Numbered from the stretch's first letter, positions 11,070 through 18,662 are shown. The stretch: DNA of 64,000 bases from Candidatus Aenigmatarchaeota archaeon (GCA_032249395.1 JAVVFY010000002.1:1-64000); one strand, 5' to 3'. Notes: generated by a model from the sequence alone, not told the origin. Numbers and translations are program-made.

Positions 11070-11993
11070 ATGATAGTTTTAACATTTTTGGGCACAGTAT
11101 CAGGAATACCTAGCAAAGAAAGAAATCATCCAGCAATAGTTTTAGAGTATTTTTATTACAAAAAAGATACTTTGCTTTTTGATTGTGGTGAAGGAACACA
11201 AAAACAACTTATGAATGCTGGAATAAGCTTTATGGACATAAGTAAGATTTTTATAACTCATTGGCATGCAGACCACTTTGGAGGATTAATACCATTACTA
11301 CAAACTATGAACCTAGAAAAAAGGAGAAGCGAACTAACAATATTCGGACCTGAAGCAAGTAGATTTGTTCAAACCATATTAAATTTAGGATATTTTGGAT
11401 TGAGATTTCCTGTGAAAGCGGTAGACGTACCTTATGAGGGAAAACAAATTGTTAAAGTATATGAACACAAGTTATACGAAATACTTTCCATTCCGGTATT
11501 GCATACAATACCATCTGTTGCTTTCGCCTTTAAGGAAAAGGATGTGTGGAGGATCGATGAGAGAAGGCTAAAGGAATTGGGCTTGAAAAAAGGGAAGTGG
11601 CTAAAAGAATTGAAAGAAAAGGGAGAAGTTGTTTATAACGGGAAAAAAATTAGGATAGAAGAAGTAGCAAAGCTTCAAAAGGGTTTAAAAGTTGTATATA
11701 GTGGAGATACAAAACCTTGCGATAACATTATAGAATTATCAAAAGATGCTGATGTATTAATTCATGATGCAACCTTTTTGGAAGAAGATGAAGATACGCA
11801 AAAATATCATTCAAGTGTTAAAGATGCAGCAATAGTAGCAAAAAAGGCAAATGTCAAAAAACTGATTTTAACTCATATTAGTAGAAGATACAGAAATGAT
11901 GATATAGAAAGAATTATAAATGAAGCTAAACAAGTCTTCGACAATGTTGAAGTTGCATATGATTTAATGAAAGTTGTTTTAAAAAGAGAATAA
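11070..11993 (+). CDS. rnz: ribonuclease Z
   Basis: FLGT, DCGEGT, THWHADH, YSGDT, HDATF, LTHIS.RY. Confidence 0.96.
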   Translation: MIVLTFLGTVSGIPSKERNHPAIVLEYFYYKKDTLLFDCGEGTQKQLMNAGISFMDISKIFITHWHADHFGGLIPLLQTMNLEKRRSELTIFGPEASRFVQTILNLGYFGLRFPVKAVDVPYEGKQIVKVYEHKLYEILSIPVLHTIPSVAFAFKEKDVWRIDERRLKELGLKKGKWLKELKEKGEVVYNGKKIRIEEVAKLQKGLKVVYSGDTKPCDNIIELSKDADVLIHDATFLEEDEDTQKYHSSVKDAAIVAKKANVKKLILTHISRRYRNDDIERIINEAKQVFDNVEVAYDLMKVVLKRE

Positions 11994-12124
11994 AAGAGCA
12001 AAATTATGAAGCATAAAAGCTAGTCTCTAGAGATAATTATATTTATCTCTAGCCAAAAATGTCATTTTTTTGAACTTTATTTATAGTTTTTGTATTCTAC
12101 AGAATATATTTCAGTGTGAATGAA

Positions 12125-12331
12125 TCATTCATAAATCACATTAGCCTCCAGAACAATTGCTTTTCCTCCCCTCGCCCTTATAAAAGAAGCTATTTCTATT
12201 AATTTTTGAGTGCTTTCATGGGTCCAAACAGACTTCTGGATCATTCTTGCACCAATTTTGTTCAATTTTCTGTTTATCTTCAGTTTCAAAGCTGAAGAAC
12301 CACTTCCAAGTTGAAAAATAATCAAATACAT
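12125..12331 (-). CDS. stand-alone Cas2/PaaX-like ferredoxin-fold mini-protein
   Basis: YLIIF...K.KINRKL..IGA.MIQKSVW matches the Cas2/PaaX central-domain pattern; Q replaces the Cas2 catalytic Asp. Confidence 0.65.
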   Translation of the reverse strand: MYLIIFQLGSGSSALKLKINRKLNKIGARMIQKSVWTHESTQKLIEIASFIRARGGKAIVLEANVIYE

Positions 12332-12855
12332 TATGATACTTTAGTATCAAAAATATAAATACATTTATATACCGAAAAATATATATTAGTGTGAAGTAAC
12401 GAAAAAGAATGAATCAAAAAATATATAATATAAAATAAATTTTAAAAAAACAATATTATAAAATATAGTATGGTGTGAATATAAACTAAAGATAAAATAA
12501 GCTAAAGATAAAATTCGAAAAAGTGAAGATTTTGATAACGTGAGATGAGTTAAAAATAAAATCTGGCGTTGAAAGGTATCAAAAAAATTTAATAAGATAA
12601 ATTAAAAGTGATGAAAACCGTAGGTAAAATTCGAATCAAAAATATTGAAAATAAATAAAAAGAAAAGAAACAGAGATGTGAGAATTATTAAACATAAAAA
12701 ATATAAAATCACAAAGTGATGAAATTAGGAAAAGCAACTAACATCAGAAATAAAAATGAAAATTTAGAAAGCGTGATATAAACAATAGATAAATTCAAAC
12801 AATATGAAGGTGAGAGTTCTGAACAAAAATTTAAATACAAAAACTAATTACTTAG
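12332..12855. promoter_or_regulatory. 524-bp AT-rich, A-skewed intergenic region with repeated GTGA motifs (candidate origin/nucleoprotein site)
   Basis: 9 plus-strand GTGA vs 1 TCAC; ATCACAAAGTGAT palindrome 12708-12720; ctaaagataaaat direct repeat at 12486 and 12502; tgatact-tt-agtatca 12334-12349. Confidence 0.5.
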
Positions 12856-13707
12856 ATGGGCGTGATATCTTTTATAAAGAAAATATTATTTGGAGAAAAA
12901 CAACCTGAACGATTCAGCGATTCACAGCGATTTGAATCGATGAATCAATTGATTCGTATCGATTTGAATCGAGCTGAATCGGAAAGAATCGAGCTGAATC
13001 GAGCTGAATCGATGAATCAATCGATTGAATCGCCCAAATCAACAATTATCTCTAGCGAAAAGGAGGAAAAACCAACAATTTCTATCGATAAAGAATCTCT
13101 TAAGGTTGGCATGGCAGCTGGCTATATCTCACGCTCCCTAATAAGTATAGAAGATGGAATAGAAAGGATAGAAATTTCAATGCCATCCAAAGAATGGATA
13201 ACCATGAACATTCTTCCAAAAATAGAGCAAGTACAACAAGCAATATACAACATAAGGGAAATCCTAATGGATCATGAAAGAAACGAGGAAAAAAGATTTG
13301 AAGTATTATTAGAAGCAATAAACAAACTAAAAACTATGGCACCCTCACTACCAGAACCGATAAAAACTGAAATTTTATCTACAGTTGCGTCATTGAAATC
13401 TGCTACCCTAACTCCCAAAATGCAACAAATTCTCGACATTCTCAAAGAAAGAAGAGAAATTAGTTACCAAGAACTTGCTGAAAAACTTGGAATAACAACA
13501 GATGGTCTAAGAGGTATACTCTCCAGAATGGTAAAAGTATGTGACGAAATCGAGCGATTTGAAAAAGATGGTAAGGGATGGATAAGAATTAAATCGATTC
13601 AAAGCGATTTGAATCGATCAGAATCGCTAGATCAAAGCAGTAGACTAGAAATAAAAGAACAAAAAGAGGAAAATAAGGAAAATAAAGACCTTTCAGATAT
13701 GCCATAA
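12856..13707 (+). CDS. amphipathic-helix / coiled-coil / C-terminal winged-HTH protein
   Basis: N-terminal FIKKILFG; heptad-rich middle; LTPKMQQILDILKE..ISYQELAEKLGIT..GLRGILSRM wHTH. Confidence 0.75.
   Translation: MGVISFIKKILFGEKQPERFSDSQRFESMNQLIRIDLNRAESERIELNRAESMNQSIESPKSTIISSEKEEKPTISIDKESLKVGMAAGYISRSLISIEDGIERIEISMPSKEWITMNILPKIEQVQQAIYNIREILMDHERNEEKRFEVLLEAINKLKTMAPSLPEPIKTEILSTVASLKSATLTPKMQQILDILKERREISYQELAEKLGITTDGLRGILSRMVKVCDEIERFEKDGKGWIRIKSIQSDLNRSESLDQSSRLEIKEQKEENKENKDLSDMP
12909..13033 (+). repeat. intragenic GAWTC/GAATCG repeat array
   Basis: 12 GAWTC in ~125 bp, five at exact 10-bp spacing (12966, 12976, 12986, 12996, 13006). Confidence 0.9.
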
Positions 13708-13905
13708 ATTCACACTCTCAATAATTTCGATTCAATAAGAGATAAAATGAAAAAGAAAAAATATTGAAAAACAGAAGAAAATAAGAAAAAATATAAAGGT
13801 TTAAAGAGTATGATTTTACCTTTTAGTCTCACTCACGATCTATAGAATTGTAAAAAACGCGTTTCACAAACAATAACTTTTAAACACAAAAATACAAATT
13901 TGTGA

Positions 13906-14745
13906 ATGGAGGGAATCGAAAACATAGCAAAGATTCTTTGGAATTTGGGAATAACAATAACGAAAATAGAGAAAAATCGAATTTATGCAAAAGACTCTAA
14001 CGGAGAGTTATTGATAAGAATTAGCAATGTCGGACCAAAAATCAAAACCTACGATAAGAGGATTATAGTTATTTCGCCGTACGCTGCAAAAAGAATTGAG
14101 GAGGAAAGAATGAAGAAAATAATAGAAGGATACTCACAACCAGTATTCGTAAACAAGAAAAATCTCGAAGAGCTAGCCCCATCAACTCTATTCAAGATAG
14201 TAAATTATCTCAAGGAAAATCCTAATACTTACATAAAGAAGATCTCAGAAGACTTGAAAATTCACCCAGAGATAGTTAGAAGAAATTTGATAAAGATAAA
14301 AGATTACCTAGAAATAAAAGAATTTGAAAGTGGAATGAGTTTGCCAAAATTACCAAAGCTAATTTCTTTAAAAGAAGAAATACCTCCTGAAAAACTAACT
14401 GAACTCTCTAAAAATAAAATATCAATTTTACCAACTAGAAATAAAAGAAAAAGAAGAATTAGATACGAAAAAACAAGTAAATCTGAGGCCTTGTTTAAAG
14501 TACTGAAGTTTATAGAGGAAAACCCGGGAACTTACCTAAGAGAAATCTCACGAGAATTGAAAATATCTCCTTCTTTAGTTTACTCTTGTTTAAAAGAGGT
14601 AAACGAATTTCTAGAGCTCTCATCTCCCATAGGAAAAGAAGATATCGAACTACCAAATTTGCCGATTTCCATAAAGCTAAAACAAGGTTATACAGCTGAG
14701 GGAATTATAAGATACTTAAGATTCAGAAGAATGCTAAAGTTTTGA
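13906..14745 (+). CDS. tandem winged-HTH protein
   Basis: two internal repeats LFK(I/V)...ENP.TY(I/L)..IS..LKI.P..V, each followed by LP.LP..I.LK. Confidence 0.8.
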   Translation: MEGIENIAKILWNLGITITKIEKNRIYAKDSNGELLIRISNVGPKIKTYDKRIIVISPYAAKRIEEERMKKIIEGYSQPVFVNKKNLEELAPSTLFKIVNYLKENPNTYIKKISEDLKIHPEIVRRNLIKIKDYLEIKEFESGMSLPKLPKLISLKEEIPPEKLTELSKNKISILPTRNKRKRRIRYEKTSKSEALFKVLKFIEENPGTYLREISRELKISPSLVYSCLKEVNEFLELSSPIGKEDIELPNLPISIKLKQGYTAEGIIRYLRFRRMLKF

Positions 14746-15588
14746 ATTTTTTGTTTTTCCAGTAAGTCTACAAAAAGCACAAATTTCAGTATTAGTTGGT
14801 TCTCCACATATTTTACAAAACTTGAGTTGATCTTCATTTTCGAAATAGGCACTCATTTTTATTACAGAGTTCAAAAGTCTTTCCTTAAAGCCTGGAACTT
14901 CTGACTCAAGTTTATCTATAATATCATACCACTTGCTTGTTTTTTCATACAACTTTATCTTTTCCTTAAAGTATATGCAAAGACTTTCTTGAACGTACGG
15001 TACTCCAAGATTTTTTACAAATTCCTCATTTTCTTTTCTGCCAACAAAGAAAAGCGGTCTTATTTTTGTTAACAATTTTGGATTGTTGCTTTCCACTTTG
15101 GGCCTAAACTTACCTATCCAAGAATAGTTCATTCCAAGAATATTTTTGATGAAAAACACAAGAATATCATCTCCATGATGCCCAGTTGCTATCTTAGTTG
15201 CTCCAAGTTCTCTGGGAATTTTATTCATCAGATATCTTTTTATAACCCCACAATCGCTACAAACTGGTCTCCTATTCTTTTTTGCTATTTCGCGAAGATT
15301 GATACCTTCTTTCTTCAAATCGAATACAATAAGTTTTACTCCAGCTAATTCGCATTGTTTTTCAACAATCTCCTGAATTTTTTCTGAACCAATAGTTCCA
15401 AGGTTTATGTGAAATCCTATTATTTCAAAATCCGAATTTCTCTCCTCCTTAAATTTTTTTAACACAAACAAAACCGCCGCACTATCCTTACCTCCGCTCA
15501 AGGCTACAAAAATCTTATCGCCTCTCTCAACAAGCCTGTACTTTTCAATCGTTCTAAAAATTTTATTTAAGTATTCGCTCTGATTCAT
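14734..15588 (-). CDS. tRNA 2-thiolation ATPase, TtuA/TtcA/Ncs6 family
   Basis: SGGKDS PP-loop, CSDC, ATGHH.DD, C-terminal CKIC..CAFC. Confidence 0.88.
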   Translation of the reverse strand: MNQSEYLNKIFRTIEKYRLVERGDKIFVALSGGKDSAAVLFVLKKFKEERNSDFEIIGFHINLGTIGSEKIQEIVEKQCELAGVKLIVFDLKKEGINLREIAKKNRRPVCSDCGVIKRYLMNKIPRELGATKIATGHHGDDILVFFIKNILGMNYSWIGKFRPKVESNNPKLLTKIRPLFFVGRKENEEFVKNLGVPYVQESLCIYFKEKIKLYEKTSKWYDIIDKLESEVPGFKERLLNSVIKMSAYFENEDQLKFCKICGEPTNTEICAFCRLTGKTKNSKL

Positions 15589-16640: not shown

Positions 16641-18662
16641 GTGGTAATAATGAAAGATAGAGATAAATTAAATGAATGTAATTTGATTACAAAAGCAAGA
16701 GACATAAGAAGATTAAGCGAAGAGGAATTTTTGTCTTTAACTAATCAAATAAAAGAACTAACAAAGAATTTTACTGAATTTAAGCAACTAATCAAAGAGA
16801 ATAGTCAGATTTTGTTGATAATTAGATGTCTCACCGGAATGAAAAGAAAAGATTTTGCTAGTGCTATAGGAATTAACGAAGAAATTTTAAGACAAATAGA
16901 AGTTGGTAGAAGGAAAATTAAAAATGAGAGTAAAATCGATAAGATAAGCAAGAATTTGGAAGAAATTTTCTCTAAAATTTCTGAAATAAGCGTTGAAAAT
17001 GCATTAGAGCTTTTCAAAGAAGTAGCAATCCCAACCGATAATGAAAAAGTAGAGAAGATTAGAAGCGAGTTGGAAGAAATAAGCCTGCCCGAAGACCTTA
17101 GAAAAATGGATGAAGAACAATTTTTGAAAGTTTTTGAATGGTTGAAAGAAAAAACAAATAACTTTAAGATTTTCCCAGAAGAGGTCTTTTTAGCAAAAAA
17201 TCAGCTTATCCTAATTTTGAGGTGCGCTTTGGGAATGACTAGACCTAGTTTTGCAAGAAAAGTTGGAATATTTCAAGAAACGTTAAGACATGTAGAAGCT
17301 GGGAGAAAAGGTCTACAGTTTTCACAAAAAACAGTCGAAGATTGGTGTAGAAAAATAAATGAATTTTTAAAAACCCAAGAAATCTCTCCGAATATCGAAA
17401 AATCGTTATCTATTTGGAAAGAAATAAGCATTCACCAAACAGAAGAAAACATAACAGAAATAGAAAAAATAAAAAGCGAGATGAATAAGCTTGGATTGAT
17501 TGACTGGGATAAAAAAGATTCAAAAATTTTACCTGAATTTTTCAATTTCTTTAGAGAAAAAACAAATAACTTTACTATATTCCCAATTTCTCTTTTTCTA
17601 GCGGATAGTAGTCTATCGATATTTTTCATTAGATGTTGCAACGGAATGACGCAAAAGGAATTGGCAGAAAAAATTGGATGTACAAAAGATCTTATTAGAC
17701 ATCTAGAGAACAAACACGGAAGAATTGTGCATGCAGGACCAGCACTAAGATGGATAAATAAATTACAAGCATTGCTGCCAAAAAACATAAATTTCGAAAA
17801 ATTCGAACAAAATTGGAAGAAAATAATTTTTTCGAAGATTGAAAATATAGAGAAAAAAGAATCTTTCAAAAGTTTATCTACAGAAGCAATTATTAGCAAA
17901 ATAGAAGAATTGAAATCAAGAACAAACAATTTTAATGAGATAAGGGAAGTTTTAGAGAATGATGCTAGGAATATTTTCTTATTTAGAGTAATATGCAGAA
18001 AAAGAACAAAAGAACTGGCAAGAATATTAAAAATTGAACCAAGCGAATTAAGGAGCTGGGAAGATGGGAAAAGAAGAATAAGTCCAGAAACGTTAGAAAA
18101 AATCGCTCCAATTCTGAAAGAAATGCTTAGAGATATTAAGATAGAGAAGGAGACAATATTAAGGAATTTAAAAGATATAAAAAAAGGTAAGATTTGTTTT
18201 AATAAAGATATACAAGTAAAAAATGGTATCAAGTTAGTTGAAAAACTTCCACCGACCGAATTAGAAAATAAAGTAATAAAAGTTCTGTCATCCAATAATA
18301 TTCCATTCGAACTTCACGCTACAATAGATTTCAATGGTAAGTTCTTTAACGTAGATTTTGCTATTCCAAATTCACAGAAACCAAAAATAATAATTGAAGT
18401 TTTTGAGTCAAAAAGTAGTAATAGAAATTTAAAGACTAAATTAATAGTTACTGACCATAGATTTGTGGTTTTAAAAAGCAATAAACCGGATTTGAAAACT
18501 GCTATGATAGGTGAAACTAAATCTTTACTAACGGAAGAGTGGAGAGAACATATGCTTAAAGAAATTATAGCAACTGATTTTATAGTTTTAGGAGATAATG
18601 AGGATGTAGAATCCTCAATAAAAGATACTTTACTTAGTTTCATAAAAACCAACTTACAATGA
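16641..18662 (+). CDS. protein with four XRE-type HTH repeats and C-terminal Vsr/DUF559-like PD-(D/E)xK domain
   Basis: 4x [T(N/K)NF...R...GM...A..(I/V)G.....R..E.G] repeats; C-terminal PTELE..V...L...VDF.....IIIEV. Confidence 0.75.
   Translation: MVIMKDRDKLNECNLITKARDIRRLSEEEFLSLTNQIKELTKNFTEFKQLIKENSQILLIIRCLTGMKRKDFASAIGINEEILRQIEVGRRKIKNESKIDKISKNLEEIFSKISEISVENALELFKEVAIPTDNEKVEKIRSELEEISLPEDLRKMDEEQFLKVFEWLKEKTNNFKIFPEEVFLAKNQLILILRCALGMTRPSFARKVGIFQETLRHVEAGRKGLQFSQKTVEDWCRKINEFLKTQEISPNIEKSLSIWKEISIHQTEENITEIEKIKSEMNKLGLIDWDKKDSKILPEFFNFFREKTNNFTIFPISLFLADSSLSIFFIRCCNGMTQKELAEKIGCTKDLIRHLENKHGRIVHAGPALRWINKLQALLPKNINFEKFEQNWKKIIFSKIENIEKKESFKSLSTEAIISKIEELKSRTNNFNEIREVLENDARNIFLFRVICRKRTKELARILKIEPSELRSWEDGKRRISPETLEKIAPILKEMLRDIKIEKETILRNLKDIKKGKICFNKDIQVKNGIKLVEKLPPTELENKVIKVLSSNNIPFELHATIDFNGKFFNVDFAIPNSQKPKIIIEVFESKSSNRNLKTKLIVTDHRFVVLKSNKPDLKTAMIGETKSLLTEEWREHMLKEIIATDFIVLGDNEDVESSIKDTLLSFIKTNLQ

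Follow-up and report, generated by a model that had tools for sequence, protein, structure and literature searches.

A winged-helix gene with helically phased repeat arrays in its own codons: a candidate chromosome-anchoring locus of Candidatus Aenigmatarchaeota

The locus, its in-gene arrays and its AT-rich spacer

The window, the whole 64,000-nucleotide stretch of Candidatus Aenigmatarchaeota DNA analyzed here, corresponds to bases 1-64000 of contig C2 of the G000 assembly (752,806 bp in 25 contigs, 89.5% complete), and the public runs containing the stretch of interest are hot-spring metagenomes. Between an RNase Z-type gene (rnz) and a PP-loop/TtuA-type gene (ttuA) lies a gene for a 283-aa winged helix-turn-helix (wHTH) protein, the central gene, which carries two arrays of short DNA sites inside its own coding sequence. 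It is separated by an AT-rich spacer from a divergent 68-aa open reading frame (ORF) and by a second spacer from an ORF for a 279-aa tandem-wHTH protein (Table 1). Relatives of the 283-aa protein are labeled "Candidatus Aenigmatarchaeota" (DPANN) in their source records. An earlier prediction made from the sequence alone (the original prediction) had described this locus as a four-part system of A-skewed composition. All four parts were found where it had placed them, and the AT skew is +0.2 to +0.4 across 12400-14400; the anatomy thus stood, but the single unit did not, as the 68-aa ORF is syntenic only within its genus and the tandem-wHTH gene is patchy. The invariant unit is the AT-rich spacer plus the central gene, and the other two genes are not core parts.

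The sites in the arrays read GAATCG or, on the opposite strand, CGATTC, and they lie near both ends of the gene, in agreement with the predicted GAWTC arrays. GAATCG occurs 20 times in the window, 14 of these within 12910-13918, and the assembly has 139 GAATCG/CGATTC matches, 13 of them in the gene region, which is the only place in the assembly with at least three GAATCG matches inside 150 bp. All five genomic occurrences of GAATCG-N4-GAATCG and all three copies of the 12-mer CGATTTGAATCG lie inside the central gene, and no regulon is visible for the array word. Tandem Repeats Finder (TRF) detected a period-10 array at 12958-13013 (5.6 copies) and a further array at 13588-13626. Five sites of the 5' array stand at an exact 10-bp period (12966-13011), and no other tandem array of the genome combines more than four copies with a period other than a multiple of 3. 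The 10-bp unit GAGCTGAATC is translated in all three frames, as RIELNRAES, and in relatives of the genus three copies of ATACGAATCG are translated as DTNRYESIRI. The 3' array holds an inverted repeat with 12-bp arms (13592-13619), and the top 6-mer of the 5' array recurs three times within 150 bp after the wHTH codons, vs. 0.08 expected. Comparison with G005, whose protein is 95% identical, uncovered eight array differences, one in a GAATCG hexamer and seven in spacers or flanks. No 10-bp insertion or deletion was found in the arrays in the contigs of four public runs, contigs being prone to drop rare variants. Scanning for bacterial promoter and intrinsic-terminator consensus sequences gave a single terminator-like match, the 3' palindrome, and such a scan is uninformative for an archaeon.

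The arrays were then compared across 43 orthologous loci from 43 genomes, a first set of 23 and a second set of 20. A word with at least five copies in the linker codons, which follow those of the N-terminal helix, was present at 19 of 23 and 15 of 20 loci (~0.1 or fewer expected, as judged from the remainder of each locus); the word was selected from the linker itself, which biases the p-values but not the counts. With 34 of 43 loci carrying an array, the prediction that orthologs would have internal DNA repeats was borne out. Recurrence of the linker word at the 3' end is an unbiased test, and the same word was found at least twice in the 150 bp after the wHTH at 11 of 23 and 10 of 20 loci (21/43; 0.01-0.13 expected). 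The 3' cluster spans or follows the stop codon at three loci (L009, L015, and L017). Spacing statistics were taken from the 225 same-strand top-word spacings of the 34 arrays with at least five copies: 57 were 10 bp, 12 were 11 bp, 14 were 9 bp, and 36 were 20-22 bp, while 39 were 4 bp, contributed by a (GATT)n class, and 62 were multiples of 3. The spacings thus peak at 10 and 20-22 bp rather than at multiples of 3, indicating that the phase follows the DNA helix and not the codon, and families share the 10-bp period while using different words. Confinement to the gene recurs as well, since 35 of 36 matches to AAGCGC-N(1-14)-AAGCGC in five other genomes and 13 of 15 matches to CGAATCG-N(1-14)-GAATCG in five genus members lie in the gene locus. 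Because they are read in three frames, are phased, run past the stop codon, and keep their hexamers, the arrays are DNA sites and not peptide repeats; they are unique in the genome, helically phased, and conserved.

Conservation extends to a second element, the upstream spacer. The lowest-GC window of the assembly is the 400 bp starting at 12321 (19.3% vs. a mean of 31.9%, standard deviation 3.75), and in relatives' contigs the equivalent spacer ranks first in AT content in G033:C5 and G035:C1, second in G039:C2 (786 kb) and in the first 140 kb of G031:C1, and fourth in G006:C1 (481 kb). Nine plus-strand GTGA boxes (starts 12391, 12475, 12523, 12540, 12608, 12678, 12716, 12773, and 12810) and one TCAC lie in the 520 nt that precede the start codon, vs. 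1.2 GTGA expected from shuffles preserving mononucleotide content only. This is the top same-strand GTGA cluster of the genome (the next best has 6). Relatives' spacers contain 5-12 co-oriented boxes and 0-2 in the opposite orientation, with enrichment at p <= 0.05 at 17 of 23 and 13 of 18 testable further loci (30/41). The box consensus is W-GTGA-G-A-(G/A)-T-T, and in several families the boxes stand at -22, -48, -74, and -100, a 26-nt period. The extended box [AT]GTGAGA[GA][TA]T is clustered in G039 (4/13) and rare and not clustered in G000 (1/14). The GTGA boxes are conserved across the order, and spacer and boxes accompany the arrays and, at four loci, are missing along with them. They could be promoter elements or sites for another factor.

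Shine-Dalgarno sites were considered and rejected as an explanation of the boxes: only 2% of 135 spacer boxes have a G at -1, and they extend as GTGAGA(G/A)TT. Across the genome as a whole, GTGA is most frequent at -10 to -6 relative to the start codon (50 of 573 genes), about half of these reading GGTGA. On the other side of the central gene, TCAC occurs four times in the 200 nt after the stop codon (starts 13710, 13829, 13833, and 13864), vs. 0.4 expected. This inverted set was seen only in the genus of the window, g1 (four at L008, three at L038), and the predicted convergence of GTGA motifs on the central gene holds for this genome. A plus-strand GTGA at 13902-13905 abuts the ATG of the 279-aa gene, too close for the usual Shine-Dalgarno spacing. 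An Rfam search of 11500-15000 (E <= 1) gave only a chance snoRNA row (E = 0.98) and no family at threshold.

The central protein and its predicted half-sites

The original prediction had assigned the central protein an N-terminal amphipathic helix, and all 43 orthologs agree with it by sequence. Their first 16 residues have a net charge of +1 to +6 (43/43), and for the best N-terminal 11-mer the hydrophobic moment is 0.76 at the median, vs. a 95th percentile of 0.67 for core 11-mers. An AlphaFold2 (AF2) model of the 283-aa protein (14-row alignment; mean predicted local distance difference test score [pLDDT] 72) places a helix at residues 3-11, followed by a low-confidence linker at residues ~13-75 (pLDDT 35-57) and helices at 79-108, 112-118, 120-164, and 169-183 (pLDDT 81-94). 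The predicted wHTH was recovered as well: Pfam HTH_24 matches aa 190-226 with 23.3 bits (cutoff 21.9), and Foldseek matched this domain to MarR/ArsR-type chains only (HpaR, NolR, and SmtB; E = 5.6e-4 to 1e-2). The helical domain gave no Foldseek match in the whole-model search, and a PDB sequence search with the family profile gave generic HTH rows only (E >= 0.01).

Modeling of residues 75-250 as a homodimer gave a score of 0.51, while the best of three controls scored 0.00; of proteins solved as one-chain pairs, 20 of 30 attained this mark, and of those solved single-chain, 1 of 23. The runs agreed in at least 94% of contacts, with a partner pLDDT of 81 and an interface along helices 91-187, which supports the predicted homodimerization of the 283-aa protein through its helical domain. 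No ParBc or ParB family was present among its Pfam (E <= 1) or NCBIfam matches, and Pfam found no ATPase or helicase-loader domain in it and no Rep_3 or Phage_rep_O in either the 283-aa or the 279-aa protein.

The family is small: a search of 1.84 billion proteins gave 83 cluster representatives at E <= 1e-30. Of 40 relatives, 26 have an ortholog, and across the phylum the count is 66 of 301 genomes, distributed over families f1 (15/16), f2 (45/58), f3 (3/3), f6 (1/1), and f5 (1/19). These five families all belong to one order, and the gene was not found in the other families searched. No relative was found on a viral contig, and there is thus no sign of a mobile-element origin. Close relatives encode proteins of 283, 280, 273, and 269 aa, differing by in-frame changes in the arrays or tail. 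Literature searches found no paper on this family or arrangement. One ortholog (G230:C26:1715-2428) has five in-frame stops (two TGA, one TAG, and two TAA) and is possibly a pseudogene or the product of poor assembly. At L016, L013, and L034, a further 4-5 copies of the array word fall within the conserved helical core, the RFKALESAL segment being one example, and the linker peptide repeats there resemble a core helix.

A single half-site, AA[G/T]C[G/A], underlies the array words. In the 35 rows that have at least four copies, the dominant half-site was AAGCG in 19, AATCG in 8 (the window included), and AATCA in 8. The recognition helix opens here with the residues TTDG, and these four positions co-vary with the half-site: Glu or Gln stands at position 2 in all 8 AATCA rows and in none of the 27 others, and an acidic residue stands at position 3 or 4 in 10 of 16 AAT rows and in none of the 19 AAG rows. 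On the best protein tree, built without the four helix columns, AATCA requires 7 changes (7.3 with shuffled labels), 2 of which are forced by well-supported branches. As 7 changes are needed and the class is scattered on the tree, AATCA looks repeatedly derived. The co-variation is suggestive of reading of the arrays by the gene's own wHTH.

Neighboring genes and the question of a replication origin

Table 1. Features of the locus in window coordinates
Feature	Positions	Strand	Remarks
RNase Z-type gene	11070-11993		One flank of the locus
68-aa ORF	12125-12331	-	Divergent from the central gene
524-bp AT-rich spacer	12332-12855	+	Nine co-oriented GTGA boxes
Central 283-aa gene	12856-13707	+	Amphipathic helix, linker, helical dimer domain (predicted), wHTH, tail
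N-terminal amphipathic helix codons, MGVISFIKKILFG, residues 1-13	12856-12894	+	Predicted from moment, charge, and AF2
5' in-gene array	12910-13032	unstranded	9 GAATCG/CGATTC sites plus palindromes
Helical domain, aa 79-183, predicted homodimer interface	13090-13404	+	AF2
wHTH domain, aa 187-245; recognition helix from ~aa 215	13414-13590	+	Pfam HTH_24, Foldseek
3' in-gene array	13588-13633	unstranded	3 GAATCG/CGATTC sites
Second spacer, 198 bp	13708-13905	-	Four minus-strand GTGA boxes
279-aa tandem-wHTH ORF	13906-14745	+	Pfam HTH_24 and HTH_5
PP-loop/TtuA-type gene	14734-15588		Other flank of the locus

Homologs of the 68-aa ORF with 55-82% identity are syntenic at five loci of genus g1, and BLAST found none beside the orthologs of other families; judged by these matches, it is a real gene of the genus and not a core part of the locus. 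It had been taken for Cas2-like, and it has no Cas2 match; its only Pfam match is to ChrB_N (E = 0.04, below the cutoff). Its nearest ESM Atlas clusters consist of Aenigmatarchaeota-only hypothetical proteins (scores 0.85-0.89, at the level of a lead). The 279-aa protein was predicted to have a double wHTH, and this was confirmed by Pfam (HTH_24 and HTH_5) and by an internal duplication in the alignment; the protein has an N-terminal beta-rich domain and two duplicated wHTH modules (AF2 pLDDT 78). A tandem-wHTH homolog lies directly downstream at three g1 loci and in family f3 (L015, L017, and L020) and 2-4 kb away in two g1 genomes; BLAST found none beside the gene elsewhere. The adjacency is limited to genus g1, in part, and to f3, and the 279-aa gene is a neighbor whose partnership with the central protein is only putative. 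ScpB was considered as an identity for the 279-aa protein and rejected: the Foldseek rows are weak tandem-WH matches (ScpB E = 1.1e-3, TM ~0.3), and they are not meaningful because canonical ScpB (C4:22533) and ScpA (C7:6400) exist elsewhere in the genome. For a WH1-WH2 fold, the model likewise gave weak generic tandem-WH Foldseek rows only.

No match to an actin-like or tubulin-like motor was found among the neighbors here and at nine orthologous loci. The neighbors of orthologs vary, with PolB and primase present once each. A methionine aminopeptidase (Peptidase_M24) lies 1-3 kb from the gene at L030, L031, L035, and L040, which belong to different genera, and it is the only loosely conserved neighbor across families. 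A XerA-like tyrosine recombinase with Phage_integrase and SAM-like N-terminal domains is encoded at L030 4328-5158 (G035:C1), ~2 kb upstream of the ortholog, in this one genome only. Further along the window (16641-18662) is a gene for a protein of 673 aa whose four HTH modules are of the XRE type (Pfam HTH_3 in four stretches). Metatranscriptome contigs (X19 and X20) cover all three coding regions of the locus at 85-99% identity; DNA carry-over is possible, and the contigs are compatible with expression. No long contig of these RNA libraries covers the spacer, and missing cover proves nothing. One X19 contig skips 84 bases (28 codons, in frame) at 13029-13114, between the 5' array and the conserved core, which may be a relative's variant or an assembly artifact.

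An AT-rich region with repeated boxes is present at the locus, a resemblance to an origin only. The suggestion that the locus encodes an initiator and holds an origin was not upheld: the locus lies at no cumulative GC-skew minimum in five relatives' contigs, and the gene was not found in 14 of 40 relatives. As predicted, no cdc6 lies nearby; the only Orc1/Cdc6 above cutoff is on another contig (C1:105590), and in G006, G033, and G039 a distance of 66-197 kb separates Orc1/Cdc6 from the gene. Orc1/Cdc6 was checked in four genomes and has no long AT-rich gap next to it in any of them, and therefore cdc6 marks no obvious origin either. By bacterial convention, a skew maximum is terminus-like. The skew of G039:C2 reaches a broad maximum (294-360 kb) whose last shoulder holds the gene, at 360.5 kb, and its minimum lies at 708 kb; in G033 and G031, of the same genus (g15), the gene is likewise near the maximum. 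In two genera the gene lies inside a monotonic arm: G006:C1 shows a clean V with its minimum at 206 kb and the gene at 287 kb on the rising arm, and in G035:C1 the gene is 140 kb down the falling arm from the maximum. Across these contigs, no strand-composition switch coincides consistently with the locus. The skew-minimum regions of G006 and G039 share no genes. Orc1/Cdc6 itself stands off the skew extremes, at 163 kb in G039:C2 and at 353 kb in G006:C1; in these two genomes, either the origin is not at cdc6 or the skew is not replication-driven. AT-richness keeps an origin-type role alive, and the tests that were run give no support to it.

A candidate membrane anchor and its relation to known systems

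We tentatively read the locus as a chromosome anchor, in which centromere-like arrays are bound by the membrane-anchorable wHTH protein whose gene contains them; the probability that we give this reading falls a little short of even. The data show the architecture of the protein and the character of its arrays; the binder of the arrays, membrane binding, and the cellular role are the parts of the reading that we infer. Centromere-like membrane tethering, one of two functions proposed originally, remains the best reading of the locus, with cis-sites in the gene itself and a predicted membrane helix in its product. The 283-aa protein would be a winged-helix dimer confined to this order, with an N-terminal helix that seeks the membrane, and its own wHTH would most likely bind the short half-sites AA[G/T]C[G/A], here AATCG within GAATCG/CGATTC. 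As the sites are spaced by one helical turn in the disordered-linker codons and occur again at the 3' end, cooperative binding on one face of the DNA could coat both arrays, ~600 bp apart, and produce one unique nucleoprotein landmark per chromosome. Such a landmark would carry at least two amphipathic helices and so might attach to the cell membrane, and the complex would also throttle expression of the gene; the AT-rich spacer with its GTGA boxes would be an associated control or cis region. The likeliest role would be that of a motor-less, centromere-like anchor for chromosome positioning or segregation. A bolder form of this idea, an "auto-centromere" in which the nascent protein coats its own gene and pins this single locus to the membrane as a motor-less attachment site of the kind Jacob envisaged, is doubtful. 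It would possibly be coupled to unconventional replication control in the AT-richest spacer, and a simple code would govern the co-evolution of half-site and recognition helix.

Several findings weigh against an anchor. No motor or partner gene is conserved beside the central gene. The co-variation of half-site and helix is phylogenetically weak, with two well-supported contrasts, both concordant (sign test p = 0.5), and the rest of the recognition helix is highly conserved, R219 being invariant, although the words differ; the real target of this conserved helix could be the GTGA boxes. No clear array is present at 9 of 43 loci. Four of the array-less loci (three of genus g2 and one of g3) encode short, divergent homologs and also lack the spacer and the GTGA boxes, indicating that the protein can exist without these elements; at the array-less locus L036, another ORF ends 3 bp before the gene. 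The gene itself was not found in 14 of 40 relatives and is present in only 1 of 19 f5 genomes. The protein is therefore not an order-wide universal segregation device.

Among the alternatives, pure autoregulation, with the arrays as promoter-proximal, intragenic, and 3' operators through which a membrane-sequestered factor represses or roadblocks its own gene only and plays no structural part in the chromosome, is unlikely but has the most to commend it. The wHTH is of MarR/ArsR type, source records label relatives "transcriptional regulator," and the sites surround and fill the gene; in the part of the source available, the centromere-binding proteins StbA and ParR are also described as autoregulating (10.1101/2022.04.29.490116). 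A self-only target would, however, make the protein a regulator without output, paired sites being essentially confined to the gene, and 10-15 phased sites with a second array and an AT-richest spacer exceed the needs of known autoregulatory operators. The conserved predicted membrane helix would also be left unexplained. An appeal to replication fares worse. In a Cdc6-independent or accessory origin, the spacer would be the unwinding element, boxes or arrays the iterons, and the initiator the 283-aa wHTH protein or the tandem-wHTH neighbor, as with lambda O and ori-lambda. Such an origin is improbable: none of the relatives' contigs tested has the locus at a cumulative GC-skew minimum, searches of 40 relatives failed to find the gene in 14, replication genes do not recur as neighbors (PolB and primase at one locus each), and the protein has no ATPase or helicase-loader domain. 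What speaks for it is that the spacer is the lowest-GC 400-bp window of the assembly and ranks 1, 1, 2, 2, and 4 in relatives' contigs of 140-786 kb, that co-oriented GTGA boxes are enriched (p <= 0.05) at 30 of 41 loci with an inverted set after the gene in the genus, and that cdc6 lacks an AT-rich gap in four genomes and stands off the skew extremes.

It is slightly less probable still that the arrays serve a different binder, be it the tandem-wHTH neighbor, the 68-aa protein, or an unlinked factor, with the gene as a permissive linker host. Arrays are present at loci with no BLAST-found tandem-wHTH or 68-aa homolog nearby (L013, L016, and L030-L033 included), and the half-site class tracks the recognition-helix residues of the host protein itself, whereas the strong conservation of that helix (R219 invariant) against differing words, together with the tandem-wHTH gene downstream in g1 and f3, would suit a foreign binder. 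Least probable is that the arrays have no function as DNA and are a slippage-made low-complexity linker or a contingency (phase-variable) repeat. A linker that is disordered in the model (pLDDT 35-57), in-frame indels among close relatives (283, 280, 273, and 269 aa), and the (GATT)n microsatellite class with its 39 of 225 spacings of 4 bp are compatible with such an origin of the repeats. It would not account for the same word ~600 bp away at the 3' end of 21 of 43 loci, outside the ORF at three, or for a 10-bp period built from different words in different families; hexamers are kept while spacers vary between G000 and G005, and arrays co-occur with spacer and boxes and are absent together with them.

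If the anchor reading is right, the locus bears on chromosome organization, anchoring, and segregation in DPANN archaea, whose cells are tiny and whose genomes are below 1 Mb. It joins a single protein, with its predicted membrane helix, to a unique cluster of sites in a compact and testable cis/trans pair, which could be a minimal centromere or tether. The apparent code linking AAGCG, AATCG, and AATCA to helix positions 2-4 lends itself to swapping. The arrays also illustrate how DNA sites read in three frames can dictate residues of a disordered linker that then seem conserved, a point that matters for annotation and for evolutionary-rate analyses. This analysis contributes a survey of 43 genomes, the uniqueness of the arrays in their genomes, statistics on array phasing, the co-variation of half-site and helix, a model of the dimer, the conservation of the AT-richest spacer and its GTGA boxes, and a skew test with a negative outcome.

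The 283-aa system is a member of neither the StbA, ParR/TubR, Noc, nor lambda O families, whose defining features it lacks, and it shares individual traits with each. Lambda O is encoded by a gene that contains ori-lambda, a proven origin with four ~19-bp iterons. As there, lineage-specific cis-sites lie in the inter-domain linker codons of the binder's gene, binding being predicted here; unlike there, the sites number 5-15 and measure 5-10 bp, a second array follows at the 3' end, and the skew gives no support. With MarR/ArsR-type regulators the protein shares its C-terminal wHTH fold, from which it departs by a separate long helical dimer domain (in the model), an N-terminal amphipathic helix, and in-gene sites, and no ligand- or metal-binding features were identified in it. 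Noc has about 70 scattered sites and reaches the membrane by means of an amphipathic helix at its N terminus, and the spo0J/parB gene contains a parS site. An amphipathic helix at the N terminus, here recognized from sequence, is the likeness to Noc, and the absence of a ParB-type CTPase domain and the single locus per genome set the system apart from ParB and Noc. In the accessible part of the source, Noc of Bacillus subtilis is described as linking specific DNA sites to the membrane (PMC4331003).

The nearest parallels come from plasmid centromeres. In parC and tubC, as far as the available text of the source describes them, two sets of 10-12-bp repeats are cooperatively coated by the small dimeric proteins ParR and TubR (10.1101/2022.04.29.490116), TubR being an HTH centromere-binding protein (10.1101/2022.04.29.490116; PMC6009700, likewise in part). 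Two sets of helically phased short repeats at the gene of the binding protein are common to these systems and ours, but ParR/parC and TubR/tubC have an adjacent actin-like or tubulin-like motor and intergenic repeats, whereas here there is no motor and the repeats are in the gene. StbA of plasmid R388 is, by the same partial account, an HTH protein with a variable second part that mediates segregation without a plasmid NTPase and autoregulates, and its stbS comprises two sets of five 9-bp repeats with an 11-bp cycle, bound on one face (10.1101/2022.04.29.490116). From what that text describes, stbS lies in the promoter and StbA is PadR-like, with an N-terminal HTH, without a membrane helix, and plasmid-borne, unlike the system here; there is no sequence relationship, the 283-aa protein having Pfam matches to generic wHTH only. 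On the same description, what StbA/stbS and the present locus have in common is an HTH protein, two phased repeat sets at its own gene, and the lack of a motor gene.

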